Part shown: piece after piece, positions 1,938 to 56,718 of the stretch
Layout of the letters: every line of letters begins with the position of its first letter
Numbering within the stretch: the first letter of the stretch is position 1
Source: Oscillospiraceae bacterium
GTDB lineage: Bacteria; Bacillota; Clostridia; Oscillospirales; Oscillospiraceae
DNA length: 64,000 bases
NCBI GenBank assembly: GCA_017430455.1
Contig: JAFRMX010000010.1
Location: forward strand, 40,777 to 104,776
Direction: 5' to 3'
Program-made: the position numbers and the translations under genes
The notes under the pieces: generated by a model
What the model saw: the letters and a program-made list of their open reading frames with translations, nothing else
Database searches by the model: none
What the model was told of the DNA's origin: nothing

Positions 1938-2157
1938 CGTGTCATAATATGGCACGAAGATGATTTTTAAAACCATTGGTATTATTGGGTTATGACGGGT
2001 ATGACACGTATGACGCGTATGACGCGTAGATAGACATATGTGATTATCCGCAGTTTTTAGGTGTGTTCAAGTACGTGTCATTCCCGTCATACGTGTCATA
2101 AACCGTTGAAAATACAGGATTCCTTGATGACATGTCTCTCTTGCTTATGACACGTAT
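1938..2157 (+). repeat. Word-array element R1. Private word TATGACRCGTA / TACGYGTCATA.
   Basis: Hairpin CGTGTCAT-AAT-ATGGCACG (1938-1956). Four direct copies of TATGACNNG (1991-2028). About 43 bp of core. Three reverse-complement copies (2072-2100). Further copies at 2126-2136 and 2146-2156. Confidence 0.85.
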
Positions 2158-2375
2158 ATTATATTCTCCCAAAAGGCGCTCTGCATTTTTGAGACGGAAT
2201 AAACTCCGGTACCGCATATCGGGTACCGAAGATGTAATGATTTATTCGATCGCGAGGACAGTTGAGATATGAAGCGATGTAAACTGAAGTTTATCGAATT
2301 TTTTTCTTTATTTTTCACGGGTATGTGATAAACTGATATATTATTGATCGGGGATATCCCGTCCGGCAGGAGAAT

Positions 2376-3557
2376 ATGGAACATCACGCGAGACATGAGA
2401 GAATATGGCGCTTTTTAAGGCCGTTCGTACGGCTTTATTTCCGTATCAGCGCAAATTGCCGGGTGCCCGAGATCTGTGATCTCGAGGGGCCTTTATTCGT
2501 AATGTGCAACCACAACACGGATCTCGACCCGCTCATACTCGGCACCGCGTTTAAGCACCAGTTCTATTATGTTGCGAGCGAGCATGTCATGAGAAGCGGA
2601 ATACTTTCTAAGCTTCTCGCCTTCGCTCAGCCTCCCATAGTCCGCCAGAAGGGCGGAAGCGCCGCGGGGACAGTACGCGAGATGCTGAAGACCTTCAAGG
2701 AGGGGCAGAGTGTAGGCCTGTTCCCCGAGGGCAACCGCTCCTGGGACGGGGTCACGCGCGACTTCGCCCCGGCGACCGGAAAGCTCGCGAAAACGAGCGG
2801 AGCGACGCTCGTCACAGTCTGTCTCAAGGGAGCTTATCTCGCCTCCCCGAGATGGTCCGGTGCCAGGATCCGCAGAGGCGGGATCACGGTGGAGATAAGG
2901 GGCGTATATCCTCCGGAGGAGCTCAAAAAGATGAGCACCGCCGAGGTGAACGCGCTTATCGCGAGAGATCTTTTTGAGGACGCCTTCGAGCTCCAGAGGT
3001 CTCTTGAAAAGCCTGTCAGATACCGTTCGAAAACTCCGGCCGAGCATCTGGAGACGGCTCTGTGTATCTGCCCGAAATGCAGAAAAACAGGCACGATGAG
3101 AAGCAGAAAGACCGAGTTCTTCTGTACTGAATGCGGGCTCAAGGTCAGATATGAAGAGACCGGGTTCTTCAGCGGGGAGGAGGATATTCCTTTCGACACC
3201 GTTCGCGACTGGTACGCCTGGCAGACAGAGGAGATAAAAGCTCTCTGCGACGGCACCGCGGACGGAGGCCTTATCTTCGAGGACGCAGGATTCAGGCTCA
3301 AATCCGTAAAGACGGGCGTCTCCAGCCGGGACCTCGGCACGGACACGCTGAGCCTTTATAAGGACGCCCTGGTCCTTCCCGACAATACGAGGATACCTCT
3401 AGACAAGCTCGCCGGTATGGCGATAAGAGGGAGCAGCTGTCTGTTTCTCAGCACGGAGGGCGGCGAAAACTATGAGATCACCGCTCCCGTCACGACCAGC
3501 TGCGAGAAATATCTCTCCGCCTGCATGGCGCTCGGCTGCAGCGTAAACGGAACATAA
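2376..3557 (+). CDS. PlsC-family lysophospholipid acyltransferase with a C-terminal zinc-ribbon extension
   Basis: HX4D motif (CNHNTDLDP) and the FPEGNRS motif. The C-terminal half carries CPKC...CTEC. AGGAG RBS lies before the ATG. Confidence 0.8.
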   Translation: MEHHARHERIWRFLRPFVRLYFRISANCRVPEICDLEGPLFVMCNHNTDLDPLILGTAFKHQFYYVASEHVMRSGILSKLLAFAQPPIVRQKGGSAAGTVREMLKTFKEGQSVGLFPEGNRSWDGVTRDFAPATGKLAKTSGATLVTVCLKGAYLASPRWSGARIRRGGITVEIRGVYPPEELKKMSTAEVNALIARDLFEDAFELQRSLEKPVRYRSKTPAEHLETALCICPKCRKTGTMRSRKTEFFCTECGLKVRYEETGFFSGEEDIPFDTVRDWYAWQTEEIKALCDGTADGGLIFEDAGFRLKSVKTGVSSRDLGTDTLSLYKDALVLPDNTRIPLDKLAGMAIRGSSCLFLSTEGGENYEITAPVTTSCEKYLSACMALGCSVNGT

Positions 3558-3598
3558 TAAACAATCAAAATACAATATAATATATCCTGTTGTAAAAG

Positions 3599-5095
3599 GT
3601 GGTGTGGCAAGTGACACGCATAGGCTTTGACAATGACAAATACGTCAAGCTCCAGTCCCAACATATCAGAGACAGAATAGACCATTTCGGCGGAAAGCTG
3701 TTCCTGGAATTCGGAGGAAAGCTCTTCGACGACTATCACGCCTCGCGCGTTCTCCCCGGTTTCCAGCCGGACAGCAAAGTGAAGATGCTCCTCGAGATGA
3801 AAGACGACGCGGAGATAGTCATAGTCGTATCTGCCGACGATATCGAGCGCAGCAAGCGCAGGGGAGACCTGGGCATCACGTATCAGGACGATACACTGAG
3901 GCTCATCGACGCGTTCCGGGGCATAGGGCTCTTCGTCGGAAGTGTTGTCCTGACGCACTACCGGGAGCAGACTGCAGCGGAAAAGTTCCAGAAGAGGCTC
4001 GAGGCGCTCGGCGTCAGAGTCTACCGGCATTATGTGATCCCGAACTACCCCTCGGACGTGAATCTCATCGTCTCCGACGACGGCTTCGGAAAGAACGAAT
4101 ACATAGAGACCTCCCGCCGCCTCGTGGTCGTAACTGCTCCGGGGCCGGGAAGCGGCAAGATGGCGACCTGCCTTAGCCAGCTCTACCACGAGCAGAAAAG
4201 GGGCGTCAAGGCGGGATACGCGAAATTCGAGACTTTCCCCATCTGGAACCTGCCTTTAAAGCACCCCGTTAACCTGGCCTATGAAGCCGCCACGGCGGAC
4301 CTGGACGACGTCAACATGATAGACCCCTTCCACCTGGAGGCCTACGGTGAGACGACCGTCAATTATAACCGCGATGTCGAGATCTTCCCCGTTCTCGACG
4401 CCATCTTTAAGAAGATCAGCGGGGAGAGCCCCTACAAGAGCCCCACGGATATGGGCGTTAACATGTGCGGCTTCTGCATCGTCAACGATGAGGCCTGCAG
4501 AGAGGCTGCCAAGCAGGAGATAATTCGCAGATACTACAACGCGCTGGTCTCCCAGAGGCGCGGCTTCAGCGACAGCAGCGAGACCACTAAGATAGAGCTC
4601 CTCATGAATTCGCTCGGCACGGGCCCGGACGACAGGCCCGTCGTAAAGGCCGCTCTGGACAGGGCGGAAGCGACGGGAGGCCCTGCTGTTGCCCTCGAGC
4701 TGAACGACGGGACGATCATAACCGGAAAGACTACTTCTCTTCTCGGAGCCTCCTCGGCCTGTCTTCTGAACGCTCTCAAATATCTGGCGGGCATTCCGAA
4801 GAAGGAGCTGCTGATGCCGCCTGAGGTCATAGAGCCGATACAGCACCTCAAGGTCGAGCATCTGGGGAACCACAACCCGAGGATGCACACCGACGAGCTG
4901 CTCATCGCGCTTACGATCGTCGCCGTAAACGACCCGAGGGCCGGGCTCGCCATCGATCAGCTGAACAAGCTCAGCGGCTGTGAGGCACATTCGAGCGTTA
5001 TCCTCTCGAGCACGGACGAATCCCTTTTCAAAAAGCTCGGTGTAAACATCACCTTCGAGCCTGTCTATCAGGTCAAGAAGCTGTTCCACAAATAA
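3599..5095 (+). CDS. DUF1846 / UPF0371 family protein
   Basis: 498 aa. The N-terminus IGFDNDKYVKLQSQHIRDRI...GGKLFLEFGGKLFDDYHASRVLPGF is characteristic of UPF0371. Confidence 0.8.
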   Translation: MVWQVTRIGFDNDKYVKLQSQHIRDRIDHFGGKLFLEFGGKLFDDYHASRVLPGFQPDSKVKMLLEMKDDAEIVIVVSADDIERSKRRGDLGITYQDDTLRLIDAFRGIGLFVGSVVLTHYREQTAAEKFQKRLEALGVRVYRHYVIPNYPSDVNLIVSDDGFGKNEYIETSRRLVVVTAPGPGSGKMATCLSQLYHEQKRGVKAGYAKFETFPIWNLPLKHPVNLAYEAATADLDDVNMIDPFHLEAYGETTVNYNRDVEIFPVLDAIFKKISGESPYKSPTDMGVNMCGFCIVNDEACREAAKQEIIRRYYNALVSQRRGFSDSSETTKIELLMNSLGTGPDDRPVVKAALDRAEATGGPAVALELNDGTIITGKTTSLLGASSACLLNALKYLAGIPKKELLMPPEVIEPIQHLKVEHLGNHNPRMHTDELLIALTIVAVNDPRAGLAIDQLNKLSGCEAHSSVILSSTDESLFKKLGVNITFEPVYQVKKLFHK

Positions 5096-5151
5096 TGATC
5101 CCGAAGGTTTATACCACAGGTTTCTTTATAAATCCAATATCGATATAATAC

Positions 5152-5177
5152 AAAAGCAGCCGTAAGGGCTGCTTTTT
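5152..5177 (+). terminator. Rho-independent terminator
   Basis: AAAAGCAGCC-GTAAG-GGCTGCTTTTT hairpin with a T tract. Confidence 0.75.
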
Positions 5178-5273
5178 GCAAAGTATTCTCTGCATTACTG
5201 AACGATTGCGCACAGTACTCTTTTATATTATAATCTCCTTAAAAATCTCTGATCTGCGGGGGTGAGAAGGAAA

Positions 5274-6068
5274 ATGGAAAACGGATGCGTAGCTGTCAGC
5301 GGCACTGACATGTACTATGTTTCCTTCGGCCGGGGGAAAAAGACTCTCGTCGTGCTGCCCGGACTCTCGGACGGGCTGGCCACGGTCAAAGGGAAGGCTC
5401 TGGTGCTGTCCGCTCCCTACCGGAAATATCTGGGAGATTACAGCGTTTATATGTTCAGCCGGAAAAACAGCATGCCGAAGGACTATACGATAAGTCAGAT
5501 GGCGGAGGATCAGGCCCTTGCCATGAAAGCTCTGGGTATAGACAGAGCCTTCGTTCTGGGCGTGTCCCAAGGGGGCATGATCGCCCAGTATCTCGCGATC
5601 GATCATCCCGAGGCCGTCGAAAAGCTGATCCTCGCAGTAACTGCCCCCTATGCCAATAACACGGTAAGAGAGGCTGTCGGAGCATGGATAGAGATGGCGG
5701 AACGGGGAGACCACCTCTCTCTGATGACCGACACTGCGGAGAGGATGTATTCGGACGCCTTCCTCGAGAAAAACCGAAAGCTCCTGCCGCTTACTGCCCG
5801 GCTCACGAAGCCCGCGAGCTATGAGAGGTTTTTCAGAAACGCATACGCTATCCTGGATTTCGACGCGCGGGAGGAGCTCTCTTCTGTGAAATGCCCCGTG
5901 CTGATCATTGCGGGCTCCGAGGACAGGACTGTAGGAACGGAAGCAGCAGATGATCTGAAGGAATGCATTCCGGAAAGCCGGGTGTATGTATACGAAGGGC
6001 TCGGGCACGGCCTCTATGAGGAAGCCCGGGATTTCTACGACAGAGTATTCGATTTCTGCGAGGCCTGA
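5274..6068 (+). CDS. Alpha/beta-fold hydrolase
   Basis: Nucleophile elbow GVSQGG, plus the late GSEDRTV and GHGLY motifs. ATG at 5274 is preferred over the track start (5262) because of the GAAGGA RBS. Confidence 0.8.
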   Translation: MENGCVAVSGTDMYYVSFGRGKKTLVVLPGLSDGLATVKGKALVLSAPYRKYLGDYSVYMFSRKNSMPKDYTISQMAEDQALAMKALGIDRAFVLGVSQGGMIAQYLAIDHPEAVEKLILAVTAPYANNTVREAVGAWIEMAERGDHLSLMTDTAERMYSDAFLEKNRKLLPLTARLTKPASYERFFRNAYAILDFDAREELSSVKCPVLIIAGSEDRTVGTEAADDLKECIPESRVYVYEGLGHGLYEEARDFYDRVFDFCEA

Positions 6069-6082
6069 TAAGGAGGAAAAGC

Positions 6083-6649
6083 ATGAACAAAGCAGTTATA
6101 GTGATAGACATGCAGTACGGGTTCATCGACCCCGCGTCGCCGCTCTGCATCCCTTACGCGAGGGGCACCGTCCCCGCTTGCGCGAGGGTAATCGCGAAAG
6201 CGCATGAAAGCGGCATCCCCGTCATTTTCGTCAACAGGAGCTATCGCGAAGACGGGCTCGACGTCGAGAAGACGCGGCTTAAGACATGGGAGACGGCAAA
6301 GCCTATGATTCCCGGCTCTCCGCTGCAGCTCTCAGCCGAAAATCCGCCTGAGCTCGGCAGGACACCCGAAGATATCTGCATCGAAAAGCCCAGATTCTCC
6401 GCGTTCTTCTCGACGAAGCTGGACATGGTGCTCCGTAGGATGGGGATCGGGCACATCTACATCATGGGCACGACCACCCCGAACTGTATCCGGACGACCT
6501 GCTTCGACGCGCTCTGTCTGGACTACGACGTGAGCGTGCTCGAGGACTGCACCTCCAGCGTCACTCCAGAGATCCAGAGCGCGAACATACTCGATATGAA
6601 AAACATAGGTGCGGAGATCCTCTCCTCGGAAGAGTTCTGCTCCGCCTGA
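6083..6649 (+). CDS. Isochorismatase-family cysteine hydrolase
   Basis: 188 aa with VIVIDMQYGF at the N-terminus and GTTTPNCIRTT (catalytic Cys context). Confidence 0.8.
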   Translation: MNKAVIVIDMQYGFIDPASPLCIPYARGTVPACARVIAKAHESGIPVIFVNRSYREDGLDVEKTRLKTWETAKPMIPGSPLQLSAENPPELGRTPEDICIEKPRFSAFFSTKLDMVLRRMGIGHIYIMGTTTPNCIRTTCFDALCLDYDVSVLEDCTSSVTPEIQSANILDMKNIGAEILSSEEFCSA

Positions 6650-6689
6650 ATTTCCCGCAACCGGACCTGCAAACGACAAACAAATAAAA

Positions 6690-6737
6690 GAGAAAAGGGC
6701 AGCAACAGTTAACAGTTTGTTTACTTGCCCTTTTCTC
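6690..6737. terminator. Putative bidirectional terminator between convergent genes
   Basis: GAGAAAAGGGCA ... TGCCCTTTTCTC arms with a rather long loop (about 24 nt). Confidence 0.45.
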
Positions 6738-6838
6738 AAATGCGTGCTATTATAATACCAGTCAACCGGGAAGAGCAAAGTAAGACACCTTAAATGCGGC
6801 AGTGCTTGCTCTTCGGCGGTGATTTTTTATGCCCTTTT

Positions 6839-7633
6839 TCAGACTTTCAAGAATCTCTCCTCAAAGGCCGTGAGGATCTCCTTCTGGGTATCATCCAGGA
6901 ACTTCAGCGCGTGTTCCCTGATATCATCCGGTATCCCGTAATACGCCTGTGCGATGCCTCCGGTGATGGCAGCGATCGTATCGCTGTCCCCTCCTATCGA
7001 GATCGCGTTGCGTATCGCATCCTCGAAGCCTGTTGATTCGAAGAAGGCCTCCAGAGCCTGCGGCACGGAGCCCTGGCACGAGACGTCGAATCTGTAGCGG
7101 GGCCTTATATCATCCAGAGTAAAATTTATCCGGTAGTAGTTCTCCGTTATATGATCCCTTATCTCCTGGATGCTCTTTCCTGTCCTAGCGAGATAGACAG
7201 CAGCTGCTGTCGCCTCCGCGCCTTTCATTCCCTCGGGATGGTCATGCGTGACCTCCGTGACGCGGTCCGCCAGATAGAGCGCTTCCTCGAGAGAAGCCGC
7301 AGCAAACCCGCAGGGGCTCACTCTCATGGCGGAGCCGTTTCCCCAGCTCTGATAGGGCTCGGGGAATCTGCTCAGCAGCCAGCTGCTGAACCTCCCGCCG
7401 TAGCCCGCATCCGGGTATTTTCTTCCGAGCTCCTGCATCCTTATGACAGCCTTGCTCCCGAGATCGGAATAATCCCCGTCACAGTCGAGTATCGCTCTTG
7501 CCACTGCCAGGGTCATGATGCTGTCATCTGTGGGTTCGCATTTCCTGTCCGAGAAGAACTCGAAGTCCTTCGTCTTAATATTGTTCCATTCGAATCTCGA
7601 TCCGGCAATGTCGCCAATTATTGCTCCAAACAT
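6839..7633 (-). CDS. ADP-ribosylglycohydrolase family protein
   Basis: MFGAIIGDIAGSRFEWNN..., GNGSAMRVSP and IGGDSDTIAAITGGIA motifs. The start was moved to the internal ATG preceded by AAGGAGGAAAAAGCT. Confidence 0.85.
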   Translation of the reverse strand: MFGAIIGDIAGSRFEWNNIKTKDFEFFSDRKCEPTDDSIMTLAVARAILDCDGDYSDLGSKAVIRMQELGRKYPDAGYGGRFSSWLLSRFPEPYQSWGNGSAMRVSPCGFAAASLEEALYLADRVTEVTHDHPEGMKGAEATAAAVYLARTGKSIQEIRDHITENYYRINFTLDDIRPRYRFDVSCQGSVPQALEAFFESTGFEDAIRNAISIGGDSDTIAAITGGIAQAYYGIPDDIREHALKFLDDTQKEILTAFEERFLKV

Positions 7634-7730
7634 AGCTTTTTCCTCCTTTGTTTTATTTGACCGTATTATAAAACAATCGGGGAGCTTTTTGGTCAATCTC
7701 GGATTGACTTTTTTTATGCCCTTCCGGCCT

Positions 7731-8264
7731 TTATATCAGCCTGTAGGTTCTGATGTATTTCTCCGGATCTGCCCCGGTCTCCAAATACCTGAGAAGGATC
7801 TCAGCGCAGGCGCGGCTATCACTGTCCGCCTGATGATGATTGAGGCAGATCCCGTAATAATCGCACATGTCGTTTAATTTGTGGCTTATCCCGGGAAGCA
7901 GGCTCCTGCCCATTACCACGGTACATATTCCTCTGACAAAGGGCTTCCACTCTATTTCATATGCCGAAAGGCAGCTCCTTAAAACGTTCATGTCAAAACT
8001 CGCGTTGTGCGCGACCAGGATCCCGGAAGACATGATCGGCTCTATCTTCTCCCAGAGCTGGGGAAAGGCGGGCGCGTCAAATACGGATTCTTCGTTTATG
8101 CCTGTAAGCTTTATATTGAACCAATCAAAGGGTTGCTCCGGATCGACAAGGGAATAGAAATTGTCCGTGATGATGCCGTCCTCTATAACGGTGATCCCGA
8201 TCGCGCTCATCCGGTTGTTCCAGTGATTCGGAGTCTCGACGTCGAAAACAATAAAGCGGTTCAT
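7731..8264 (-). CDS. DEDDh 3'-5' exonuclease (DnaQ/PolC-exonuclease-like)
   Basis: Exo I FDVETPN, Exo II AHNASFDMNVL, Exo III HHQADSDSRA. Confidence 0.85.
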   Translation of the reverse strand: MNRFIVFDVETPNHWNNRMSAIGITVIEDGIITDNFYSLVDPEQPFDWFNIKLTGINEESVFDAPAFPQLWEKIEPIMSSGILVAHNASFDMNVLRSCLSAYEIEWKPFVRGICTVVMGRSLLPGISHKLNDMCDYYGICLNHHQADSDSRACAEILLRYLETGADPEKYIRTYRLI

Positions 8265-9175: not shown

Positions 9176-9655
9176 TAACACATTGTTGCAGATAAAGAAA
9201 GCTGTCCGATGCATACGGACAGCCCCCTTTGTCGGACGGTACGGAAACTAAAGCTCAGCGGTTCACATTGCTCCCTGTCTTCTCGATCCTTGCAACCGAA
9301 TATATCTTTACATTTCCGGGGTAAAACAGGGCATGACAGATGCCTTGTTTTCCTGTCATGTCAGGTCGACCTGTCATTAAGTGATATGTTTTTTCGGACG
9401 ACAAATATGACAGTTTGGACAGGGGTGACAGCACAGAAAAGCAGCTGTCACCCGTCAAACCGTTGGGCTGCAATGGCGGGTGACAGGTGACAGCTGAAAT
9501 GTGATATAGCCCAAGCTGTCATCAGATAATAATACGATAAAAAAGGTGACAGCAGCGATTCTGCTGTCACCCTGTCATCAATCCGGTGTTTTCAATGCTT
9601 TGAGCGGTGACAGCATGATTTTCAAGCTGTCACCGTCTATTATGCTGTCATCAGG
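9176..9655 (-). repeat. Word-array element R2 (composite). Private word GGTGACAGC / GCTGTCACC, with degenerate ATGACAG and GCTGTCCG variants.
   Basis: Hairpins at 9201-9223, 9332-9360, 9423-9453, 9545-9571 and 9605-9635. Direct doublet GGGTGACAGGTGACAGC at 9478-9494. Extra copies at 9371, 9407, 9515, 9572 and 9644. Orientation was assigned from the scaffold motif AAAGCATTG on the minus strand. Confidence 0.85.
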
Positions 9656-9749
9656 TTCATCGGAAGTAATAATCCATAGAATAAGCATTTGCCCAAAATC
9701 GTCTGTTTTGACGGATTAATCAGCCGCCTTTTTCATCGTTACTCTTTAA

Positions 9750-10961
9750 TTATGAGATACTGTATTCTTTCCCCATAATATTGATTTGAACGACTTTAGT
9801 AATATCAATCGTGCCCGGCCATTCGGTGAATAAAATCGTAGCATCCCCCTCAAAATCGACCAACGGTGATCTTACCATTGTGATTGTACTGCCATCCTCA
9901 AATGTGAGATACGCGCTGCTCATAAGCTCATCGTAGAAGCCGTACCATCCAACAGGATTTGCACACATATCATCATGGCTAAGTCTCCATTCCGCGCAAT
10001 TTGCTGACAGGCGCACACTCAAAACTTTGCAACGACCGCCGGTACTCTCGTTGTACAGAACGATAGGCGATGTAAAATTCACTGAAGCAAAAACTGTTTC
10101 CACGCCTCGCAAAATTGAAGTCCCGTAATCATGAGAGTAAACCGGATCACCGAGTTCAAATGCAGTCGGGTTTTCTGTCACGTGATAATCTTCTCCGGGG
10201 ATTCGCATAGATTCAAAATCTAAACAGCGGACGGAAAAATACACCGGCATGGAGAAGTCCACATTATTCCTGCTGACATAGCTTTGAAGCATAAGGCTTT
10301 GAGTTTCTGCATCGTAACAGCGCGACATGATGACAGCTTTTGTTTGTTCCGGGTCTATTGCAGTAGTGGTTATTGCTGCTTCTTTCATATCTGTATCCGC
10401 AGCCAGCATGATCATTGCTGGGTCAGCGAAGTTCTTTGAAAAATCCTTACCTCTCTCGGAATCGTTCAACCAGTAGGCTTCTGGGATAGGTTTATTGCTG
10501 GCAAGACTTACAAAAGCAGTCACGAAGCTGTCATATATATAACTGTGGGCTTCTTCCTCCGTTACAGGCGCAACGCTGAAATAGACAAGCTGATTCTCTC
10601 CCTGCTGGATTGAGGAGATCAGTTGAATATGTGGGACTACGTCAGAAGCTGCCGTTTTATTGGCTTGTCCTGTTCTTGCATCAGCTTCGGTGTATTCTGT
10701 ATAACCCTCCACGGAGTTGCTTTCAATCTGTAAGGCGGCTTTCAATTCCATCTGGCGCCTTTGATTAATTGTGTACCCAACGGCGCAGGCAGTCAAAAGT
10801 GCGGCTATGATTGCCGCGACCAAAACCATACGCCATATTTTCCTATTTCTATGCCGCTGATGAGACTGATCATCAAGAAGGTGCAATACTTTGATTGTAT
10901 CTATAACACTTTCTTCCCCCATTTCCCCCACAGCACACAAAAGGGCGATAGAATCTAGCAT
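9750..10961 (-). CDS. Putative anti-sigma factor / single-pass membrane protein
   Basis: 403 aa. A short cytoplasmic N-terminus is followed by the TM segment WRMVLVAAIIAALLTACAVGY. The start overlaps the sigma-factor stop. Visibly lower GC than its surroundings. Confidence 0.6.
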   Translation of the reverse strand: MLDSIALLCAVGEMGEESVIDTIKVLHLLDDQSHQRHRNRKIWRMVLVAAIIAALLTACAVGYTINQRRQMELKAALQIESNSVEGYTEYTEADARTGQANKTAASDVVPHIQLISSIQQGENQLVYFSVAPVTEEEAHSYIYDSFVTAFVSLASNKPIPEAYWLNDSERGKDFSKNFADPAMIMLAADTDMKEAAITTTAIDPEQTKAVIMSRCYDAETQSLMLQSYVSRNNVDFSMPVYFSVRCLDFESMRIPGEDYHVTENPTAFELGDPVYSHDYGTSILRGVETVFASVNFTSPIVLYNESTGGRCKVLSVRLSANCAEWRLSHDDMCANPVGWYGFYDELMSSAYLTFEDGSTITMVRSPLVDFEGDATILFTEWPGTIDITKVVQINIMGKEYSIS

Positions 10962-11512
10962 AAGCCTTCCTCCTGTAAATATGTGCGAAGTTTGTTTCTT
11001 GTCCGATAGAGTGTTGTTTTCGTCTTGCTCTGGCTACAGCCCATGCGTTCTGAAATCTCAGCAATAGGGATTAAGAACCAGTATCGGGCTATAAACATTC
11101 TCCTTTCTGTGTCCGACAGGCCGCGCACGAAAGCGTTAACTACGGATTCCAATTCCTTTTGTTCGACCTCTTGGGCTGGATCTGCAGGAGAAGAAATACA
11201 ATCTTCCAACTCGTCCAAGGCAAGGGGCATCTCACCTCCGCCACGTTTCCGAGCCTTCCTTGCCTTAAATCGGTCAATGGCTAAATTTCGTGTGATGTAT
11301 CCCAAGAACGTCGAGAGAATAGGAGGCCGCTTGTCCGGCATGGAGTTCCATGCACTGAACCACGTGTCATTTACACATTCCTCCGCATCTTCACCATCCG
11401 CGCAAATGTTATAAGCGATAGTATAACAATATTTGCCATACTTGCGGTCTGTCTCGGATATTGCCTGTTCAGAACGCTGCCAGTACAGATCAACAATCGA
11501 TGAATCTTCCAT
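10955..11512 (-). CDS. ECF-type sigma-70 family RNA polymerase sigma factor
   Basis: 185 aa. Region 2 (EDAEECVNDTWFSAW) and region 4 HTH (IAEISERMGCSQSKTKTTLYRTRNKL). Confidence 0.85.
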   Translation of the reverse strand: MEDSSIVDLYWQRSEQAISETDRKYGKYCYTIAYNICADGEDAEECVNDTWFSAWNSMPDKRPPILSTFLGYITRNLAIDRFKARKARKRGGGEMPLALDELEDCISSPADPAQEVEQKELESVVNAFVRGLSDTERRMFIARYWFLIPIAEISERMGCSQSKTKTTLYRTRNKLRTYLQEEGLC

Positions 11513-11570
11513 ACTGATCCTCCTTGTTAAAGTGCTCTCAACCGTATATTACGAATATAATCAATATTGG

Positions 11571-11786
11571 TCACAAAAAAGTAATTCTTTTCGGATTTTG
11601 CGATGTTTCTTTTACAATCACTATCGGAGTTTCAGGATTTAGTCTCTTTGAGATTGCTTTAAAATGTTGCTTGTATGTGCTTAGCGTTTTTACTTTCACA
11701 CCTTTTGCTGCGGTGGCAGCAACAAACTGTTCAAACACTTCTTCCAATGTCATCTGATTAGCGTTCTGCATTTTTATTTTTTTCAT
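11571..11786 (-). pseudogene. Fragment of a tyrosine recombinase/integrase (N-terminal core-binding region only)
   Basis: 71-aa ORF. TLEEVFEQFVAATAAKGVKVKTLSTYKQHFKAISKRL resembles the SAM-like N-domain of phage-type integrases. No catalytic domain follows. It lies about 100 bp from tRNA-Ala. Confidence 0.5.
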
Positions 11787-11891
11787 AAAAAATACACCTC
11801 TTGTTTAACTGATTTTTCCAGAAAAAACAAGCGGTATAAAACCACATAGTAATAAACATAAAAGCCCTGAAACCATTGAGTTTCAAGGCTC

Positions 11892-14811: not shown

Positions 14812-14812
14812 G

Positions 14813-48299: not shown

Positions 48300-49622
<1,323 letters not shown>

Positions 49623-49634
49623 TAAATGCCTATA

Positions 49635-49664: not shown

Positions 49665-49696
49665 CTTGTCTCAATATGCTCCGTTCGGCTTCTCTT

Positions 49697-50521: not shown

Positions 50522-52242
50522 CAGCTTCTCACCGCCCTGTCAAAGTCGATAAACCGCTGAACAAACGCACGCGGCGTCTCAATTCCGCACATCAGCGCGA
50601 GCCGGAAAAGAGATGTCTCCTTGAGGCTTGCTTTTTCAACAAGCTCCGGATCAGTCAGAATATTTGCGCCGGTATCATCTCCGACTATCTTGCCGTCGCA
50701 ATAAACTATTGAGCGTGTGGCATACTCGAGCATCAGGTGCATATCATGAGTTATCATTATGATAGTAAGGCCGTCAGCATTAAGCTGTTTCAGAAATTCC
50801 ATTATTTCGGTGTAATGTCTGAAATCCTGCCCGGCTGTAGGTTCATCGAGAATAAGCACTTCAGGGTCCAGAACCAGTATGGAAGCTATCGTGACCCTTT
50901 TCTTCTGCCCGAAGCTCAAAGCGGATACCGGCCAGTTGCGGAACGGATAGAGTCCGCATATCTTAAGCGCTTTTTCAACTTTTACCTGTATTTCATCTTC
51001 ACTTGCCTTGCGTGAACGCAGACCCATTGCGACTTCGTCGAAGATCATCGTCTGTGAGATCATCTGATTGGGATTTTGCATCACATATCCTATATGGTCT
51101 GCGCGCTCCTTTATGCTCAGCTTTGCAAGATCTGATTTTCCGGCTTTCCCGAACAGAGTAATTGTTCCGCTTTGAGGCGTTTCAAAACCGCAGATGAGCT
51201 TTGCAAATGTTGATTTGCCTGCTCCGTTTCTGCCTGCGATCGCGATCAAAGTGCCTTTTCCTATATCTGTGTTGATATTGTCCGCCGCTTTTACTCCGTT
51301 CGGATATTCAAATTCAAGCCCTCTGACGGAAAGGATCGGCCATTCGGCTTTTTTCTGCTCTGCTTCCGGAGTATGCTCAAACCATTCCCTGACTTTTTCC
51401 GTTTCCTCAGGCGCAAGCGCAAGCGAATTTATGCTGTGCGGCATTATCTCCGGTCTTATTCCGACACCTGCATATTTTAAGGCAGTGACATAGAGAGGCT
51501 CCCTGACGCCCGCCTGCCGGAGAAGATCCGTGGAGAGAAGTGTATCCGGATCAAGGTCCGCAATTATTCTCCCTTCCTGCATCAGTATTATTCTGTCCAC
51601 ATCACGCCATAAAACGTCTTCAAGACGGTGCTCAATGATAACGACCGCCGCTCCGGTCTCATTTTTTATCTCGTCTATAAGTTCTATCGCCTGTTTGCCC
51701 GTTGCGGGGTCCAGGTTTGCAAGGGGCTCGTCAAAGAGATACAGCTCCACATTGTCAACCATTATTCCGCCAATTGACACGCGCTGTTTCTGCCCGCCGG
51801 AAAGTTCTCCGGGTGCATGTGTTAGCCTTTCGGATACGCCGACAGTTTTAGCGACCCTCTCTGTTCTTTCATGAAGCTCCGGGGTCTCTATGCAGTCATT
51901 TTCCAGAGCAAAAGCGATATCTTCCGCCGCAGTCATACCGACGAACTGGGCATCGCTGTCCTGGAGCACGGTCCCGACTATCTTCGAGAGTTCGAATATG
52001 CTCATGTCCCCGGTCTCTTTGCCCTTGATTTTCAGAGATCCCGTTGTCTCTCCTTTAAACGAAAAGGGAATAAGGCCGTTCAAGCAGGAGCCTATTGTTG
52101 ATTTCCCGCAGCCTGAAGGTCCCGCTATCAGGATTTTTTCTCCTTTGCGTATCTTGAGGCTGATGTCATACAGAGTCGGCTCAGCCTGCGCGTTGTATTT
52201 AAAACCGAAATGGTTGAATTCTACCAGAATTTCTTCTTCCAA
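50521..52242 (-). CDS. ECF transporter fused double ATPase (EcfA1-EcfA2 type)
   Basis: 573 aa with two ABC cassettes. Walker A GPSGCGKST and GRNGAGKST. Signatures LSGGQKQR and LSFGQKKR. Confidence 0.9.
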   Translation of the reverse strand: MEEEILVEFNHFGFKYNAQAEPTLYDISLKIRKGEKILIAGPSGCGKSTIGSCLNGLIPFSFKGETTGSLKIKGKETGDMSIFELSKIVGTVLQDSDAQFVGMTAAEDIAFALENDCIETPELHERTERVAKTVGVSERLTHAPGELSGGQKQRVSIGGIMVDNVELYLFDEPLANLDPATGKQAIELIDEIKNETGAAVVIIEHRLEDVLWRDVDRIILMQEGRIIADLDPDTLLSTDLLRQAGVREPLYVTALKYAGVGIRPEIMPHSINSLALAPEETEKVREWFEHTPEAEQKKAEWPILSVRGLEFEYPNGVKAADNINTDIGKGTLIAIAGRNGAGKSTFAKLICGFETPQSGTITLFGKAGKSDLAKLSIKERADHIGYVMQNPNQMISQTMIFDEVAMGLRSRKASEDEIQVKVEKALKICGLYPFRNWPVSALSFGQKKRVTIASILVLDPEVLILDEPTAGQDFRHYTEIMEFLKQLNADGLTIIMITHDMHLMLEYATRSIVYCDGKIVGDDTGANILTDPELVEKASLKETSLFRLALMCGIETPRAFVQRFIDFDRAVRS

Positions 52243-52310
52243 TGCTTATCTCCCGATATACGGCATAATCAAAACGGGCTCTCATTTAAGGGAGCCCGGG
52301 CTGTTTGTTC

Positions 52311-52865
52311 TTACTGTTCTTTCTTGAGCGAGTCTTTCTTGGGCTTCGCCTTGGCATAAGCAAAGCAGAGAAGTGAACCGATTATTGCTGTCGTAACAAT
52401 ATTGACAGCAGCTGCGACTGTTCCCTGCAGGAACACCTTGTTTACCGGTTCGGCATAAATCAGAATGTCAAGTACCGGTGCTACAACGATCCAGGAAACA
52501 ATGTGCGCAATCGCCTGGGCGACGTTAAAACGAATAAGCTCCTTCTTTCCGAACTCGCCGTCGTCGAGATCTATCTTCTTCGCGGCGATTCCGGTCAGAA
52601 GTCCGAATACTCCGGAAGCTATGACCCAGCTCCACCATACGCCCCAGCCGGCAGAGAGGTCCGTCAGCCAGTGACCTATAAAGCCGATAAGGAGTCCCGC
52701 GAGAGGTCCGAAGACTGCAGCCATGAAGGCAAGAAGTCCGTACTGAGTGCAGATATTGGTGTTGGGAACGGGTGAAGGGACGGAGACGAAACGCGCCAGG
52801 ACAAAGAACAGGGCAGCGCCGATACCGATCGCGACTATGGTACGTACCGAAAATCCTTTTTTCAT
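52311..52865 (-). CDS. ECF transporter S component (UPF0397-like)
   Basis: 184 aa from the ATG preceded by GGAGG (MKKGFSVRTIVAIGIGAALFFV...PVPNT...). Six TM segments. Confidence 0.8.
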   Translation of the reverse strand: MKKGFSVRTIVAIGIGAALFFVLARFVSVPSPVPNTNICTQYGLLAFMAAVFGPLAGLLIGFIGHWLTDLSAGWGVWWSWVIASGVFGLLTGIAAKKIDLDDGEFGKKELIRFNVAQAIAHIVSWIVVAPVLDILIYAEPVNKVFLQGTVAAAVNIVTTAIIGSLLCFAYAKAKPKKDSLKKEQ

Positions 52866-52949
52866 AAGATCCTCCAAAAATAATCTCTTTTTATTTTAAC
52901 ATACCTCAAGTATGGAAAAACACAGCTTGGTGTTTTCTGTATATTATTC

Positions 52950-52981
52950 AAAAGAAAAGACCTGCCGTATGACAGGTCTTT
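52950..52981 (-). terminator. Leader (attenuator) terminator upstream of the ECF operon
   Basis: Minus strand: AAGACCTG-TCATACGG-CAGGTCTT followed by TTCTTTTG, about 85 nt before the S-component ATG. Confidence 0.75.
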
Positions 52982-53085
52982 GAAGCAATATCCGACCCAT
53001 CGGTCAAGCTTTCGCACCTTATCGGTTTTTCCCGGCAGGTTGCGGAGGGGTCATTGAGCTTGTCTCTCACCCTCTCTTCATGGTG
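52982..53085 (-). promoter_or_regulatory. Candidate riboswitch aptamer / structured leader (class unassigned)
   Basis: About 100 nt between the predicted promoter and the leader terminator. Nested helices GAGGG...CCCTC and ACCTGCCGG-GAAAAA-CCGATAAGGT, a GCGAAAGC tetraloop hairpin, and GACCGATGGGTC. Confidence 0.45.
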
Positions 53086-53090
53086 AAAAA

Positions 53091-53119
53091 AGTCTAACAC
53101 ACGGATATATCAAATGCAA
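53091..53119 (-). promoter_or_regulatory. Promoter for the ECF operon leader
   Basis: Minus strand: TTGCAT (53119-53114), 17-nt spacer, TAGACT (53096-53091). Confidence 0.5.
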
Positions 53120-53138
53120 GTTTTTTATTCCGTCGGCC

Positions 53139-54602
53139 TCAATTATCTGCGCGGTTATAGCCGTTTTTCATGTGCTCGCTTGATATCTTCAGCACTTTGT
53201 TCAGACAGTCTGTTGTCTTTTCCTTTGCCATACTGCAGATCTCGTCATTGGCCTTGGCTGCCAGAGACAGATCACCACTCTCGGAGATCTTCTTATCATA
53301 TTCTGCAACAATACTCCTTCCTCCGACTGCAACGGCATACTGATATCTCTCTACCTCCTGCACTGCAGAACCGTAAACAGGATCTGCAAGTGCTCCTATA
53401 AGTCTGCTTGCCCAATAAAGGTCTTCAGTCGACGCATCCAGAGTCACCTTGCTGACATATTCCGGCATCCCGGGGACATTGGTATAGAGCGGGATCATGG
53501 CGCTGAATGTCGTGGAACCGAAGGTAAGCCACTCAAGTCCCTTTATCTCATCAGGAACCCCGCTTCTTATCTGGCAGATCGCCGTGACCCCCGTACGGTT
53601 AATGCCGATCGGGCGATATATCCCGCGCTTGCCGGTATCACGGTTGAGATACGGGTCATAGTCTGTCCCCTCGAAATGCGAGGAGAGCATATATTTTATA
53701 TCCTCGATGGTTATTTTCCTGTCCGGTTTTATCGCCCATGGGATGTTGTCACTCTCAGGACCAAAATCCGCATTTTCTCCATCCCACTTATAAGAATAAG
53801 GTGCAAGGTACCTGCCCATGAACCAGGCGCGCGGAGTGTTATATATATGGTCCATATCGGTCCTGGAACCGAAGATATCTCTTGGATTGCAGGCGCCGTT
53901 AATGTTAAGATTAAGATCGTTGTCCGAAATAAAATCCCTTAAGTCATCACTGCACATGCAGTTCTCCATTTTACCGAATGCATCGTCAATATCGAACCGG
54001 TCCGTACCGAACTGATTCGGATTAATAACGCACATATCATCGGGGACCCTGCTTGCTATCCAATGGTGACCTCCTATAGTCTCCAGCCACCAGACCTCAT
54101 TTTCATCATTAAATGCTATACCGTTGGACTCATAGGTGCCGTATTTTTCAAGCAGCCTGCCCAGCCTTATAACTCCCTCGCGCGCCGTATGTATATAAGG
54201 AAGTACCAATACTACTATATCCTCTTCTCCTATACCTCCGGGAATATCCTTCTCTCCTCTTTTTTCTGCCTTTCTGTATTCAACCAGAGGGTCTGCTGCA
54301 AGGACTCTCGGATTTGAAGTTACTGTTTCGGTTGCCGTCATTCCGACATTGGCTGCATTTATTCCCGTTGCTGCCCAGATCCCGTTTTTCGGATCTACGC
54401 TCGGGCAGGCGGAATAACGCAGCGGGTTATCCAGAAGCTCTATTTCCAGATGGGAAATAACGCTTTTATACTTCTTTTTCTGGTCTTTCGGCTCTACGAC
54501 GATCATTTTCTTTACGTCAAAATGCCCGTCATCTGTGCGGGATATAAGTGTTGAATTGTCGTTTGTAGCTTTCTTTCCGGCGAGTATTGTTGTACAGGAC
54601 AT
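53139..54602 (-). CDS. C69-family dipeptidase
   Basis: 487 aa. N-terminal MSCTTILAG, with the nucleophile Cys directly after the initiator region. Confidence 0.85.
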   Translation of the reverse strand: MSCTTILAGKKATNDNSTLISRTDDGHFDVKKMIVVEPKDQKKKYKSVISHLEIELLDNPLRYSACPSVDPKNGIWAATGINAANVGMTATETVTSNPRVLAADPLVEYRKAEKRGEKDIPGGIGEEDIVVLVLPYIHTAREGVIRLGRLLEKYGTYESNGIAFNDENEVWWLETIGGHHWIASRVPDDMCVINPNQFGTDRFDIDDAFGKMENCMCSDDLRDFISDNDLNLNINGACNPRDIFGSRTDMDHIYNTPRAWFMGRYLAPYSYKWDGENADFGPESDNIPWAIKPDRKITIEDIKYMLSSHFEGTDYDPYLNRDTGKRGIYRPIGINRTGVTAICQIRSGVPDEIKGLEWLTFGSTTFSAMIPLYTNVPGMPEYVSKVTLDASTEDLYWASRLIGALADPVYGSAVQEVERYQYAVAVGGRSIVAEYDKKISESGDLSLAAKANDEICSMAKEKTTDCLNKVLKISSEHMKNGYNRADN

Positions 54603-54772
54603 TTCATTTCTCCTTAAAAAAAATCGTTTAAGTATAACTCATACTATACTTTTTTTCAAATTAATATCCCTGTAACATTTTTTCTCTTAATTATGAAACA
54701 TCTTTAATGTATTTTTATAATTGCAAAAGCAAGTGCGAGAAATCTTTTTCATTTTGTCCTCACTATATAAAG

Positions 54773-54800
54773 AAAAACGGAGCCGGGATGCTCCGTTTTT
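54773..54800 (-). terminator. Terminator after the DUF3592 gene
   Basis: AAAAACGGAGC-CGGGAT-GCTCCGTTTTT. Symmetric A/T tracts allow function in either direction. Confidence 0.75.
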
Positions 54801-54831
54801 CTTTATTTTCCGGGGAATATCTCCGGACAGA

Positions 54832-55272
54832 CTATTTTATAACTATCATAAGGATACCCGCCGCGATCATAACGAGGGCAATCAAGAGAAATCTTCCGTG
54901 GATGCTGCTGCCGCCCGTTTCAGGCCCGACTATCCTGCAGCTTTTAATTTCCCGCGGGTCGTAATAGACAGTAACGGGAGTCCCGGCAGGGTATTTTTTG
55001 TCAAAATCAAATGCAGTTGCTTTAAAGCCCTCCGCAAATCTTGTCTCCGTATGTACTCTCTTTTTCCCTGCAGTATATGAGACCTTGTAATGTATTTCAG
55101 AATTTGTCTTTTTGCCCGTTGCTTTTATTCCTTCAAGCGTCCCGGCTGTCTGTGTGCTGAGCACGGATCTGTTTCTCCGTGCCAGCAATACGGTCGGCAG
55201 AACAGTTAAAAACATGACTGCGCCCGCTATCATTATAATTACTCCAAGTATCAAAACAGTATTTGTTCCCAT
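54832..55272 (-). CDS. DUF3592-like membrane protein
   Basis: 146 aa. TM segments at both ends flank a beta-rich core, which is the typical DUF3592 layout. Confidence 0.65.
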   Translation of the reverse strand: MGTNTVLILGVIIMIAGAVMFLTVLPTVLLARRNRSVLSTQTAGTLEGIKATGKKTNSEIHYKVSYTAGKKRVHTETRFAEGFKATAFDFDKKYPAGTPVTVYYDPREIKSCRIVGPETGGSSIHGRFLLIALVMIAAGILMIVIK

Positions 55273-55450
55273 AGATCTTATCCTCCGTTTATATCTGGGA
55301 TTTTATCATAAAAGATCCGATAATAAAATCCTTTATTGTCCCGGAATCTTGTCTTTCCGCGCAAAATACAGGAAAAAAACTTGGAAAATCCTGAATTTGC
55401 GTATATTATTGTGAGTATGGTCTGCTGTATCAAGATCGGAGGCCGGTATT

Positions 55451-56353
55451 TTGACAAGATATTTCCTGTCCGATTATCTCAAAGATACATTCGGAACAAA
55501 AGTATATAAGCTCTCGCTCCAGAGCGGCTGTACCTGCCCCAACAGAGACGGTACTCTTGGTTTCGGAGGCTGCAGCTTCTGTTCGGAGGGCGGTTCGGGC
55601 GACTTCGCCTCACCGCTTCTGCCTGTAAGAGACCAGATAGAAGCAGCAAAAAAGCTTGTTGATGCCAAATTTCCGCGCAGAATATCTGAAAGTGACAGGA
55701 AATATATAGCCTATTTTCAATCTTTTACCAATACATACGGCGATACCGAAAAGCTTTGCGCTCTTTATGAAGAAGCCCTCTCGTTTCCGGAAATTGCAGC
55801 ATTATCGGTCGCCACCAGGCCGGACTGCTTATCGGATGAAGTGCTCTTTAGACTCTCTGAGATGAACAGGACAAAACCGGTCTGGATCGAACTCGGACTG
55901 CAAACATCCGATGACAAGACTGCTGAAAGGATTAACAGATGCTATAAGACAGAAGTTTTTGGAGAATGCTGGAAAAGGCTGAAATCCGCGGGACTTGAAG
56001 GTATAGTACATATTATTCTCGGCCTGCCGGGTGAATCCGAAGCGGAAATGCTTGAAACAGCAGGCTATCTTGCCCGGCTCGACCCGCCCCCGGACGGAAT
56101 CAAAATATCAAATCTTCAGATCCTTAAAGGTACAAAGCTCGGAGAAGAATACCTGAAGAAACCCTTTAATCTGCTATCTCTGGACGAATACGCGGAGCTT
56201 GTCTGCAAGTGCCTCGATATCCTGCCTGAGACGACGGTCATACACCGGATAACCGGAGACCCTCCGAAAAAGATCCTGATCGCGCCCGCTTGGTGCGCGG
56301 ACAAGAAAACCGTAATTAATACTCTTAACAAAAAGCTAAACCGCTTCAGCTGA
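55451..56353 (+). CDS. TIGR01212-family radical SAM protein
   Basis: TTG start. CPNRDGTLGFGGCSFC cluster motif and a family-typical N-terminus (YKLSLQSGCTCPNRDG). Confidence 0.85.
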   Translation: MTRYFLSDYLKDTFGTKVYKLSLQSGCTCPNRDGTLGFGGCSFCSEGGSGDFASPLLPVRDQIEAAKKLVDAKFPRRISESDRKYIAYFQSFTNTYGDTEKLCALYEEALSFPEIAALSVATRPDCLSDEVLFRLSEMNRTKPVWIELGLQTSDDKTAERINRCYKTEVFGECWKRLKSAGLEGIVHIILGLPGESEAEMLETAGYLARLDPPPDGIKISNLQILKGTKLGEEYLKKPFNLLSLDEYAELVCKCLDILPETTVIHRITGDPPKKILIAPAWCADKKTVINTLNKKLNRFS

Positions 56354-56370
56354 TGCCAAAGCGGTTTTTT
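56338..56370 (+). terminator. Rho-independent terminator overlapping the stop codon
   Basis: AAACCGCTT...AAGCGGTTTTTT. Confidence 0.75.
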
Positions 56371-56501
56371 GTCGCATTTTTGTAAGCAGACTATAGATTA
56401 TGATTATCAGAAGAAGAAATATGAACGTCTGCTGAATCTCAACAATTCGGAAGAAGATACTTTTGAAAATATAATTGAATAAATGAGATGAAATTATCAG
56501 T

Positions 56502-56718
56502 GTAGACAGGTCCATAAAAAGGACCTGTCTACCTTTAAAGCATTGGTATTACTGCAACGGAGACAGGTAGACAGGTCAGACACGTACATTCAGCATTTTC
56601 TATCCGATTTTTATTATCTTTAGCCGGGATATGTATGCATATCACCTGTCTACCTGTCTACAGACATTGAAAACAGAGGAATTGAGAGTAGACAGGTCGC
56701 AAATAGTGACCTGTCTAC
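56502..56718 (+). repeat. Word-array element R3. Private word GTAGACAGGT / ACCTGTCTAC.
   Basis: Hairpin at 56502-56532. Direct doublet AGACAGGTAGACAGGT at 56561-56576. 67-bp AT-rich core. Exact inverted doublet at 56644-56659. Hairpin at 56688-56718. Confidence 0.9.

Follow-up and report, generated by a model that had tools for sequence, protein, structure and literature searches.

Three intergenic word arrays in an Oscillospiraceae chromosome are probably iteron-type replication-origin modules orphaned from their rep gene

Architecture of three intergenic elements in the 64-kb window

Three elements, R1, R2, and R3, were located in the window (the whole 64-kb stretch of DNA analysed here), and all three were intergenic. 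They shared one layout, consisting of an inverted word pair, a linker, tandem words, a core, reverse-complement words, a second linker, and a terminal module. An earlier sequence-only reading had described this arrangement, and its description was borne out on re-reading; its three loci stood, while the recurring unit of R2 was corrected to 9324-9634 and the inverted ends of R3 to 56488-56732.

R1, an origin-like module on the plus strand (1936..2157) with the word TATGAC[AG]CG, contained an inverted pair (1936-1960), the left linker AAAACCATTGGTATTATTG (1968-1986), four tandem 9-nt iterons (1991-2028), an AT-rich core (2029-2071), reverse-complement iterons (2072-2101), the right linker AAACCGTTGAAAATACAGGATTCC (2100-2123), and two same-strand iterons (2127-2157). 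These last two word copies formed its terminal module, as previously reported. An R1 allele with one 9-nt unit fewer was carried by L152.

R2, an origin-like module on the minus strand (9324..9655) with the word GGTGACAGC, contained, in plus-strand coordinates, a left extension of ATGACAGG words (9324-9420), a hairpin (9424-9453), a linker (9454-9477), a tandem doublet (9478-9495), an AT-rich core (9496-9544), a hairpin with one word (9545-9579), a linker that is the reverse complement of GCTCAAAGCATTGAAAACACCGGATT (9580-9605), a hairpin (9606-9635), and a last word (9644-9651). Positions 9176-9320 were a terminator and spacer outside the recurring unit. The terminator scan showed one terminator-like hairpin within R2, on the minus strand, and blastn gave no match for R2 among plasmids and GenBank phages. 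The element lay in a strain-specific islet (9207..11853, minus strand) inserted immediately downstream of the tRNA-Ala terminator and absent from the sister-strain contigs L130-L138. The islet also contained a 403-aa ORF (9750-10961), an ECF sigma gene (10955-11512), and an integrase N-terminal remnant (~11600-11790). R2 was found near its distal end, 115 bp from the islet end and 2 kb from the integrase remnant.

R3, an origin-like module on the plus strand (56488..56732) with the word GTAGACAGG, was located between convergent genes, in the intergenic region separating a radical-SAM gene from an ADH gene (56367..56750, no strand assigned). It contained a hairpin (56502-56532), the left linker CTTTAAAGCATTGGTATTACTGCAACG (56533-56559), tandem iterons (56559-56585), an AT-rich core (56586-56643), reverse-complement iterons (56644-56663), the right linker AGACATTGAAAACAGAGGAATTGAGA (56662-56687), and a second hairpin (56688-56719), and its terminal inverted repeats were imperfect and ~45 nt long. 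Two candidates at this site were rejected. A 42-codon frame upstream of R3, considered as a rep remnant, returned only a repetitive 1559-aa protein when searched with phmmer against 1.84 billion proteins, and no similarity was seen that would indicate a duplication of the radical-SAM C-terminus at an att site.

A k-mer scan of the window showed that only R1, R2, and R3 held a 7-mer, counted with its reverse complement, at least five times per 300 bp. The absence of a fourth copy from the window, first noted by eye, was thus upheld, and no element beyond the three was found in ~82 kb, the 10 kb past either end of the window included in the search. The words were also rare in the window outside their own element: all occurrences of AGACAGGT (8/8) were inside R3, 8/9 of GGTGACAG inside R2, and 5/6 of ATGACACGT inside R1. 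With one mismatch at most, R1 contained 9 word copies, R3 contained 8, and R2 contained 10 copies of GTGACAGC plus ~9 ATGACAGG-type copies in its left extension. Each element therefore carried 8 to ~19 short iterons within a few hundred bp, where six or more with one sequence are expected of an iteron-type origin. The tandem words had a period of 9 nt in R1, 8 nt in R3, and 7 nt in R2. In all three, an AT-rich core (31-36% GC against 50% in the window) lay between two sets of two or more iterons that ran in opposite directions, as in such origins. A CRISPR array was rejected, the words being 7-11 nt long, present in both orientations, and partly contiguous, in contrast to direct repeats of 24-48 nt with unique spacers of similar length. 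Assembly breaks were observed within the elements.

Conserved scaffold, exchanged words, and strain variation

With the words masked, the summed local score of each pair was compared with 500 dinucleotide shuffles. The score was reached by 0/500 shuffles for R1 and R3, 0/500 for R3 and the reverse complement of R2, and 1/500 for R1 and the reverse complement of R2. The scaffold homology claimed by the sequence-only reading held in this control. Its view that the words are exchanged as a set over a homologous scaffold was also supported. A linker pattern matched all three elements and no shuffle, a non-independent result given that the pattern was derived from R1-R3. Against genome contigs, a two-linker pattern gave only chance matches in AT-rich genomes. 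A shared TTTTCACGG motif was not enriched, and a reading of the linker as an IHF site (8/9 consensus positions by eye, in R2 only) was too weak to keep.

The region between the radical-SAM and ADH genes was dimorphic. This window carried the R3-type allele, and R3 alleles were also present in L164 and L157, while most sister strains carried a non-homologous 424-bp allele with an R2-type module in the same orientation, in which the R2 unit at 9324-9634 recurred at 92% identity. The entire intergenic region was exchanged, not an insert alone. Two specificities alternating at one chromosomal site within one species are a point of interest, and they overturn the earlier claim that each word is private to its locus, for an R2-type element with the same words occupied the R3 site in sister strains and GGTGACAG arrays also occurred in unrelated phages. 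The words are specific to the element type, not to the locus. Between the two R2-type copies, the word cores showed 0/90 differences against 27/221 elsewhere, and this conservation points to continued action of a cognate protein on the word cores in this species.

The same comparisons bear on a REP/BIME- or MITE-like family of mobile intergenic repeats spreading by itself in the chromosome, a reading that we consider very unlikely. Such a family would have many copies of one consensus per genome with defined ends and, in the case of MITEs, target-site duplications, but only three copies, each with a different word, were found in ~82 kb. The presence of an R2-type copy at two loci would fit a mobile repeat, yet the two copies had neither a target-site duplication nor defined termini, the exchange at the ADH site involved the whole intergenic region and not just an insert, and no transposase was found nearby. 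The intergenic position of all three elements, the imperfect terminal inverted repeats (~45 nt) of R3, and the assemblies that break inside the elements are also compatible with it. Subterminal repeats of the IS607 type were rejected as well; such motifs are 9-bp direct repeats, helically phased and located at the ends of a transposon (PMC6188088), and there was no transposase at R1-R3.

Word conservation is equally relevant to the suggestion, made in the sequence-only reading, of a device, whether structured RNA or single-stranded DNA, that relies on interchangeable pairing of identical stems. Very stable folds were predicted on both strands (z = -8.3 and -7.7), but strong folding (z ~ -8) is a trivial consequence of the iterons being inverted, and both strands fold equally well, as with any inverted repeat. 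The words were conserved as sequence, whereas covariation of stems would keep pairing and not sequence, and the orientation relative to transcription was inconsistent. No Rfam family matched at gathering score, and E-value mode gave only noise, its best match being IS102 RNA at 30 bits where the family's gathering score is 46. The suggestion was left without support, and we regard such a device as extremely improbable.

Viral relatives and the orphan-origin reading

Relatives were retrieved from viral contigs with patterns derived from R1-R3, a set that says nothing on the frequency of arrays away from rep genes. Within it, the R2 doublet GGTGACAGGTGACAG matched 79 viral loci, 18 of which had arrays in both orientations flanking an AT-rich core, and every tested array (7/7) abutted the 3' end of a Prim-Pol/PriCT_2, D5_N/DUF5906, or AAA_25+wHTH gene. 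The R linkers were found inside word arrays at ~30 viral loci, with at least 18 different words. The gene next to the linker array was VapE-like/DUF5906 in L374, L527, L541, L570, L605, L674, and L654, a DUF5906 gene preceded by a Toprim gene in L418, and DUF927 with Cch HTH in L693. L374 followed the order of R2 (inverted-word hairpin, linker, tandem doublet, AT-rich core led by TTTTTTAT), and its origin linker was identical to the R2 linker at 23/25 positions. In L527, both R1/R3 linkers were present in the same order, 157 nt apart, directly after the VapE stop codon. The scaffold of R1-R3 is therefore homologous to that of modules attached to a rep gene. More distant relatives in L156, L167, and L168 had CGGACA arrays directly 3' of AAA_25+HTH genes, in integrase/excisionase islands. 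A resolvase res-like reading of TGTC...GACA was dropped after the rep-adjacent relatives were found.

In the window itself, no rep-like gene was detected by tblastn or by searching its six-frame translation with profile HMMs for VapE, AAA_25, and D5, and the flanking genes within 10 kb on either side included no rep gene. The adjacency of rep and origin that defines such modules, present in the homologous viral loci, is consequently missing at R1-R3. We consider it probable that R1-R3 are iteron-type replication-origin modules, of the kind found in phages, satellites, or small integrative elements, that have been orphaned from their rep gene. Of the explanations offered by the sequence-only reading, a cognate binding factor fits, since arrays with the same linkers adjoin initiator-helicase genes in viral contigs. 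The initiator would be a self-loading helicase of the VapE-like/DUF5906 SF3, Prim-Pol/D5, AAA_25, or MCM-like Cch type, whose C-terminal winged-helix domain would, by analogy with SaPI origins, bind the words as iterons. The two opposed iteron sets may place a helicase ring at each flank of the AT-rich core; the core would melt and the origin would fire. Every replicon lineage would have its own iteron-Rep specificity pair, and this would account for one word per element over a conserved scaffold.

Orphans of this kind are most likely left over from elements that integrated site-specifically. R2 still has such a setting, a decayed tRNA-Ala islet that includes an integrase remnant and in which R2 occupies the far end. 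The surroundings of R1 and R3 showed no sign of any mobile element; this, and the presence of three origin-only remnants within 64 kb, count against the origin reading.

In at least 7 viral loci, the linker motif was also found next to integrase genes and to att cores consisting of tRNA fragments, and part of the scaffold may serve recombination instead of replication. Conservation of linkers of 16-25 nt across replicons with differing iterons, and also beside integrase/att sites, is of interest in itself. It also brings in attP-like recombination-site arms, in which the words would be arm-type sites of a tyrosine integrase/excisionase, the linkers would be sites of a DNA-bending protein, and R1-R3 would be scars of integration and excision. 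The motif was found 25-270 bp from integrase genes and tRNA 3' fragments in L393, L404, L408, L412, and L469, integrases also flanked L492 and L634, and word doublets in direct orientation flanked the tRNA fragment in L412. The short distance (115 bp) between R2 and the end of its tRNA-Ala islet would fit such arms as well, and so would the site at which two element types alternate without a change of orientation. An attP site, however, would combine arm repeats with a core shared with attB, often a tRNA 3' fragment, next to int, and R1-R3 showed no such combination: they had no tRNA-like or other shared core, there was no integrase near R1 or R3, and an AT-rich centre between opposed tandem words is the layout of an origin. 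The closest module-level matches (L374 and L527) also come after helicase genes, and recombination-site arms are thus judged unlikely.

Operator arrays for element-specific regulators, such as ribbon-helix-helix proteins or phage repressors, controlling promoters in the core as in partition/copy-control sites, were weighed on the same evidence. The omega protein of pSM19035 is a ribbon-helix-helix protein that acts on contiguous arrays of direct and inverted repeats, and the contiguous 7-9 nt direct and inverted repeats of R1-R3 resemble such arrays; the conservation of the words can likewise be taken as a sign of a protein that reads them. The promoter scan, by contrast, showed no convincing sigma-70 promoter in any core, no regulator gene was adjacent, R3 lies between convergent genes where there is nothing to regulate, and the viral relatives are at the 3' ends of helicase genes. 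Taken together, operator arrays appear decidedly unlikely.

If R1-R3 are orphaned origins, the conservation of their words is a further point of interest. Phage-encoded resistance (PER) is the case in which phage origins are supplied in trans, the host cell having a phage origin that lacks rep (PMC6356513). One speculative extension is that rep-less origins have been selected for action in trans, either as chromosomal single-copy PER-type decoys for the initiators of incoming phages or satellites with matching specificity, the specificities at one site varying between strains, or as landing pads fired by a resident Rep to amplify or mobilise neighbouring DNA; separately, the linkers might bind a conserved factor that many gut phages have in their replication complexes and in their integration complexes alike. 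This extension is rather unlikely in our estimate. If initiators are titrated or recruited in trans by the orphans, compatibility with a phage or satellite would have a simple determinant in the chromosome.

Comparison with known replication systems

SaPI origins directly follow rep and consist of 6-12 iterons, each 5-6 nt long, that surround an AT-rich centre; two or more lie on either side in opposite directions, and the winged-helix domain of Rep reads them (PMC9371898). R1-R3 resemble SaPI/PICI origins in the number of short iterons (6-12 or more), in the split of these iterons into two oppositely directed sets of two or more that flank an AT-rich centre, and in a module length of ~220-350 bp. 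The iterons of SaPI/PICI origins are element-specific and are recognised by a self-loading SF3/MCM-like helicase through its winged-helix C-terminal domain (PMC9371898), and the words of R1-R3 likewise differ by element. R1-R3 differ from SaPI origins in having no rep within at least 10 kb, in words of 7-11 nt that are partly tandem without spacers, and in two conserved linkers not mentioned in PMC9371898. The sequence-only reading had seen no described iteron class here, which was mistaken, the layout being that of published SaPI origins (PMC9371898). An apparently new repeat class is hereby reassigned to a known one, and R1-R3 look like sequences of a familiar kind in an uncommon setting, the chromosome of a gut bacterium.

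The linkers AAAsCATTGGTATTAY and AAAGCATTGAAAACAC..GGATT are shared by R1-R3 and putative VapE-adjacent viral origins (IMG/VR L374, L527, L605, L654, L674, L541, and L570), together with the order of hairpin, linker, tandem words, and AT-rich core, and with element-specific words. Unlike R1-R3, the viral copies are attached to the helicase gene, and several of them are half-modules with one linker. We know of no experimental study of these uncultured-phage arrays, which would function as origins by analogy with the SaPI work. Conserved linkers with element-specific words directly after VapE-type helicase genes offer a practical signature for origins in uncultured gut phages and satellites.

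In phage P4, type I iterons TGTTCACC (reverse complement GGTGAACA, close to GGTGACAG of R2) occur in direct and inverted orientation at ori and crr and are bound by the C-terminal domain of the alpha primase-helicase, with crr forming a second iteron cluster away from ori. The P4 clusters are inside the replicon that encodes alpha, unlike the orphaned R1-R3.

The iterons of Rep_3/RepA-type theta plasmids are also replicon-specific repeated words beside an AT-rich region. They are 17-22 bp long, directly repeated, helically phased, and bound by a non-helicase initiator, whereas the words of R1-R3 are 7-11 nt long and occur in both orientations. As probable rep-less phage-type origins in a host, R1-R3 are similar to PER elements; the PER effect, demonstrated using multicopy clones or remnants of prophages, is copy-number dependent, while R1-R3 are single-copy chromosomal sites.

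Repeat architecture of R1, R2 and R3

Sequence reading and repeat detection bore out the repeat architecture that the sequence-only reading had described for the three intergenic elements R1, R2 and R3 (R2 on the opposite strand). R1 (1936-2157) contained four tandem copies of its short repeated unit, or word, TATGAC[AG]CG(TA) at a 9-nt period. R3 (56502-56720) contained the word GTAGACAGG(T) at an 8-nt period, and R2 (9420-9655) the word GGTGACAGC, with one doublet at a 7-nt period and a left extension (9324-9420) of words of ATGACAGG type. The description stood but the borders shifted: the recurring R2 unit was 9324-9634, and the inverted ends of R3 reached 56488-56732. An unbiased scan of the 64 kb for a 7-mer and its reverse complement present at least five times per 300 bp returned R1, R2 and R3 only, and word counts in the window showed that each element's words were almost restricted to it. 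Inverted word pairs, two conserved non-word segments (linkers) in direct orientation, tandem words, an AT-rich core and reverse-complement words were common to all three elements, and the core GC content was 31-36% versus 50% in the window. When words were masked and the local scores of the remaining segments summed, dinucleotide shuffles equalled or exceeded the observed similarity in 0/500 cases for R1 with R3, 0/500 for R3 with R2rc and 1/500 for R1 with R2rc, and the proposed scaffold similarity was thus upheld. The architecture was absent from ~0.8 Mb of incidentally retrieved, unrelated genome loci, in which palindromic operators of the usual kind and a single CRISPR array were all that turned up.

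The window also contained a SAM riboswitch (RF00162, 52994-53086, minus strand, 48.7 bits) directly upstream, on the minus strand, of a 188-aa ORF (52311-52877), with a peptidase C69 gene (53139-54602) on its other side.

Related arrays in viral and metagenome contigs

The deciding evidence came from viral contigs. The R2-word doublet GGTGACAGGTGACAG matched 79 viral loci, with bidirectional arrays in 18, and 7/7 tested arrays were at the 3' end of a Prim-Pol/PriCT_2, D5_N/DUF5906 or AAA_25+winged-helix gene. Scanning viral contigs for the linker patterns CATTGAAAACAnnGGAWT, AAASCATTGGTATTAY and AAAGCATTGAAAACAC showed the linker inside word arrays at ~30 loci with at least 18 different words, including GTAACAA, TGCCGACA, CGGAACA, GGTTCCA, CACTACA, GATACACC, GGGACAC, TGTTCAA and GTAACCA. 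The gene adjoining the linker array was VapE-like (PF05272)/DUF5906 in L374, L527, L541, L570, L605, L674 and L654; in L418 it was DUF5906, with a Toprim gene before it, and in L693 DUF927 with Cch HTH. L374 had the order of R2 (inverted-word hairpin, linker, tandem doublet, AT-rich core starting TTTTTTAT), and its linker CT[GC]AAAGCATTGAAAACAC[AC]GGATT was 23/25 identical to that of R2. In L527, both R1/R3 linkers lay directly after the VapE stop in the same order, 157 nt apart, with the word GGTTACA, and Christensenellales phage NatCom_6392 had GGAACAA arrays 3' of an annotated DNA helicase. L374 (1640-1660) carried TGTCACC before the linker, though its iteron is GTAACAA, and ~34 nt (TGTCACC-N-CTsAAAGCATTGAAAACACnGGATT) were common to L374 and R2 (9572-9612). 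Judging from sequence, the word of R2 may derive from the conserved module.

In metagenome contigs, a pattern of the right linker flanked by TGTC...GACA, which matched all known copies and 0 shuffles, recovered R1, R2 and R3 alleles and two distant relatives. One of these, L156, shared the architecture, with GGACAC as its word, and was directly 3' of a gene. Full-length homologues of this gene encode AAA_25 helicases that have an HTH at the C-terminus. Homologues of this gene in L167 and L168 were in islands with an integrase and an excisionase-type HTH_17 (in L168 additionally a DnaB-N gene); directly 3' of the AAA_25-type gene, CGGACA arrays of either orientation flanked an AT-rich stretch. 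A minimal relative without tandem words, L146 (JGI contig Ga0123354_10358074, ~350-520, reverse strand; 1.3-kb contig without a rep gene), had an AAA-ATPase-like gene preceded by two modules ~95 bp apart, in each of which a linker-like spacer separates TGTCTAAAT from ATTTAGACA.

The homology of R1-R3, at the level of whole modules, to arrays adjoining rep genes is left unaccounted for if they are operator arrays, which is quite unlikely, REP/MITE-like repeats, which is very unlikely, or structured RNA, which is hardly credible. The linker motif was also present near tyrosine-integrase genes in viral contigs L393, L404, L408, L412, L469, L492 and L634; at several loci it was separated by 25-270 bp from integrase genes and from att cores consisting of tRNA fragments. 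The motif was ~25-60 nt or less from a tRNA 3' fragment in L404, L408, L412 and L469, and in L412 GGTGCAACA word doublets flanked the fragment in direct orientation, resembling arm-type sites. These positions hint at a factor common to replication and recombination complexes, or at origins adjoining attP in small elements; that R1-R3 are themselves attP arms is unlikely and leaves the same homology unexplained. The preferred reading is that R1-R3 are iteron replication origins.

Sister strains and orphan status

The DNA belongs to an uncultured member of the Oscillospiraceae sampled in ruminant-gut metagenomes. The genes flanking the elements were unremarkable: an MFS transporter gene and an acyltransferase gene for R1, an ECF sigma operon and HAD hydrolase for R2, and convergent radical-SAM and zinc-ADH for R3 (the next homologue of this ADH was just 65% identical). 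Among sister strains (~96% nucleotide identity), the entire intergenic region at the ADH/radical-SAM site was dimorphic. The window, L164 and L157 had the R3 allele, while most sister contigs had a non-homologous 424-bp region. This region contained an R2-type element that carried the words of R2, matched window 9322-9632 at 92% identity and had its scaffold oriented the same way; one ADH protein variant was found with both alleles. The words are therefore specific to element type, and the earlier claim that each is private to its locus failed. That one site can house two element types, oriented alike, would be consistent with related elements having integrated there, each with its own rep-ori module. 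A 42-codon open frame (56354-56479), in frame right after the radical-SAM stop, was present in the R3-type allele only, and its sole match among 1.84 billion proteins was a repetitive 1559-aa protein.

Tandem copy number of the word arrays differed between alleles, as expected from slippage; R1 in sister strain L152 had one 9-nt unit less. Contig ends fell inside elements in L143, L144 and L157, which suggests that assemblers break at word arrays, and copy numbers in draft genomes would accordingly be underestimated. Between two R2-type copies, 6-nt word cores showed 0/90 differences versus 27/221 at other positions, which was still significant after correcting for words defined in one of the two copies (ascertainment bias), and the single mismatch of the window copy in the R3 central stem was missing in two other alleles. 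Both comparisons point to continued recognition of the words by a protein in this species.

R2 was carried by a strain-specific 2.65-kb islet (9207-11853) just 3' of the tRNA-Ala terminator; the islet was wholly missing in 9 sister contigs, where tRNA-Ala and its terminator adjoin the HAD promoter. Beside tRNA-Ala it had the remains of a tyrosine integrase N-terminus (~11600-11790, minus strand). It also carried an ECF sigma gene and a 403-aa ORF; the ORF lacks any Pfam domain and probably encodes the anti-sigma factor. R2 was ~115 bp from the distal islet end, which places it at the far end of an integrated element that has since decayed. The host terminator hairpin (11857-11887) contained CCTGAAACCATTGA, also the linker start in viral loci L408 and L374, whether or not the strain had the islet; the match may be coincidental or have to do with an att site.

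No initiator gene turned up in the window when ten proteins, initiators or integrases, were used as tblastn queries, and VapE, AAA_25 and D5/Prim-Pol profile HMMs had no match in its six-frame translation. The 10 kb on each side contained housekeeping genes, with no initiator gene and no further element copy. R1-R3 are therefore orphans, without the rep-ori adjacency that defines the class. Their most economical provenance would be decay of site-specifically integrated elements that carried the origin distally, an arrangement still visible in R2.

Comparison with known replication origins

SaPI origins have 6-12 penta- or hexanucleotide iterons directly downstream of rep and an AT-rich centre with at least two iterons per side in opposite directions; the iterons are recognised through the C-terminal winged-helix domain of a helicase that loads itself without a separate loader, and each island binds its own origin (PMC9371898). 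The layout of R1-R3 matches this description, and the words are therefore read as putative iterons and the core as a putative unwinding element. Concerted word replacement would then be an ordinary outcome of the own specificity of each Rep-origin pair. R1-R3 are a known kind of sequence, and the residue of interest is their orphan status with conserved words; two specificities dimorphic at one site within a species and the widespread conserved linker are also of specialist interest. By analogy with phage-encoded resistance (PER), in which phage origins are supplied in trans, a decoy role (PMC6356513) or trans-firing of R1-R3 is possible.
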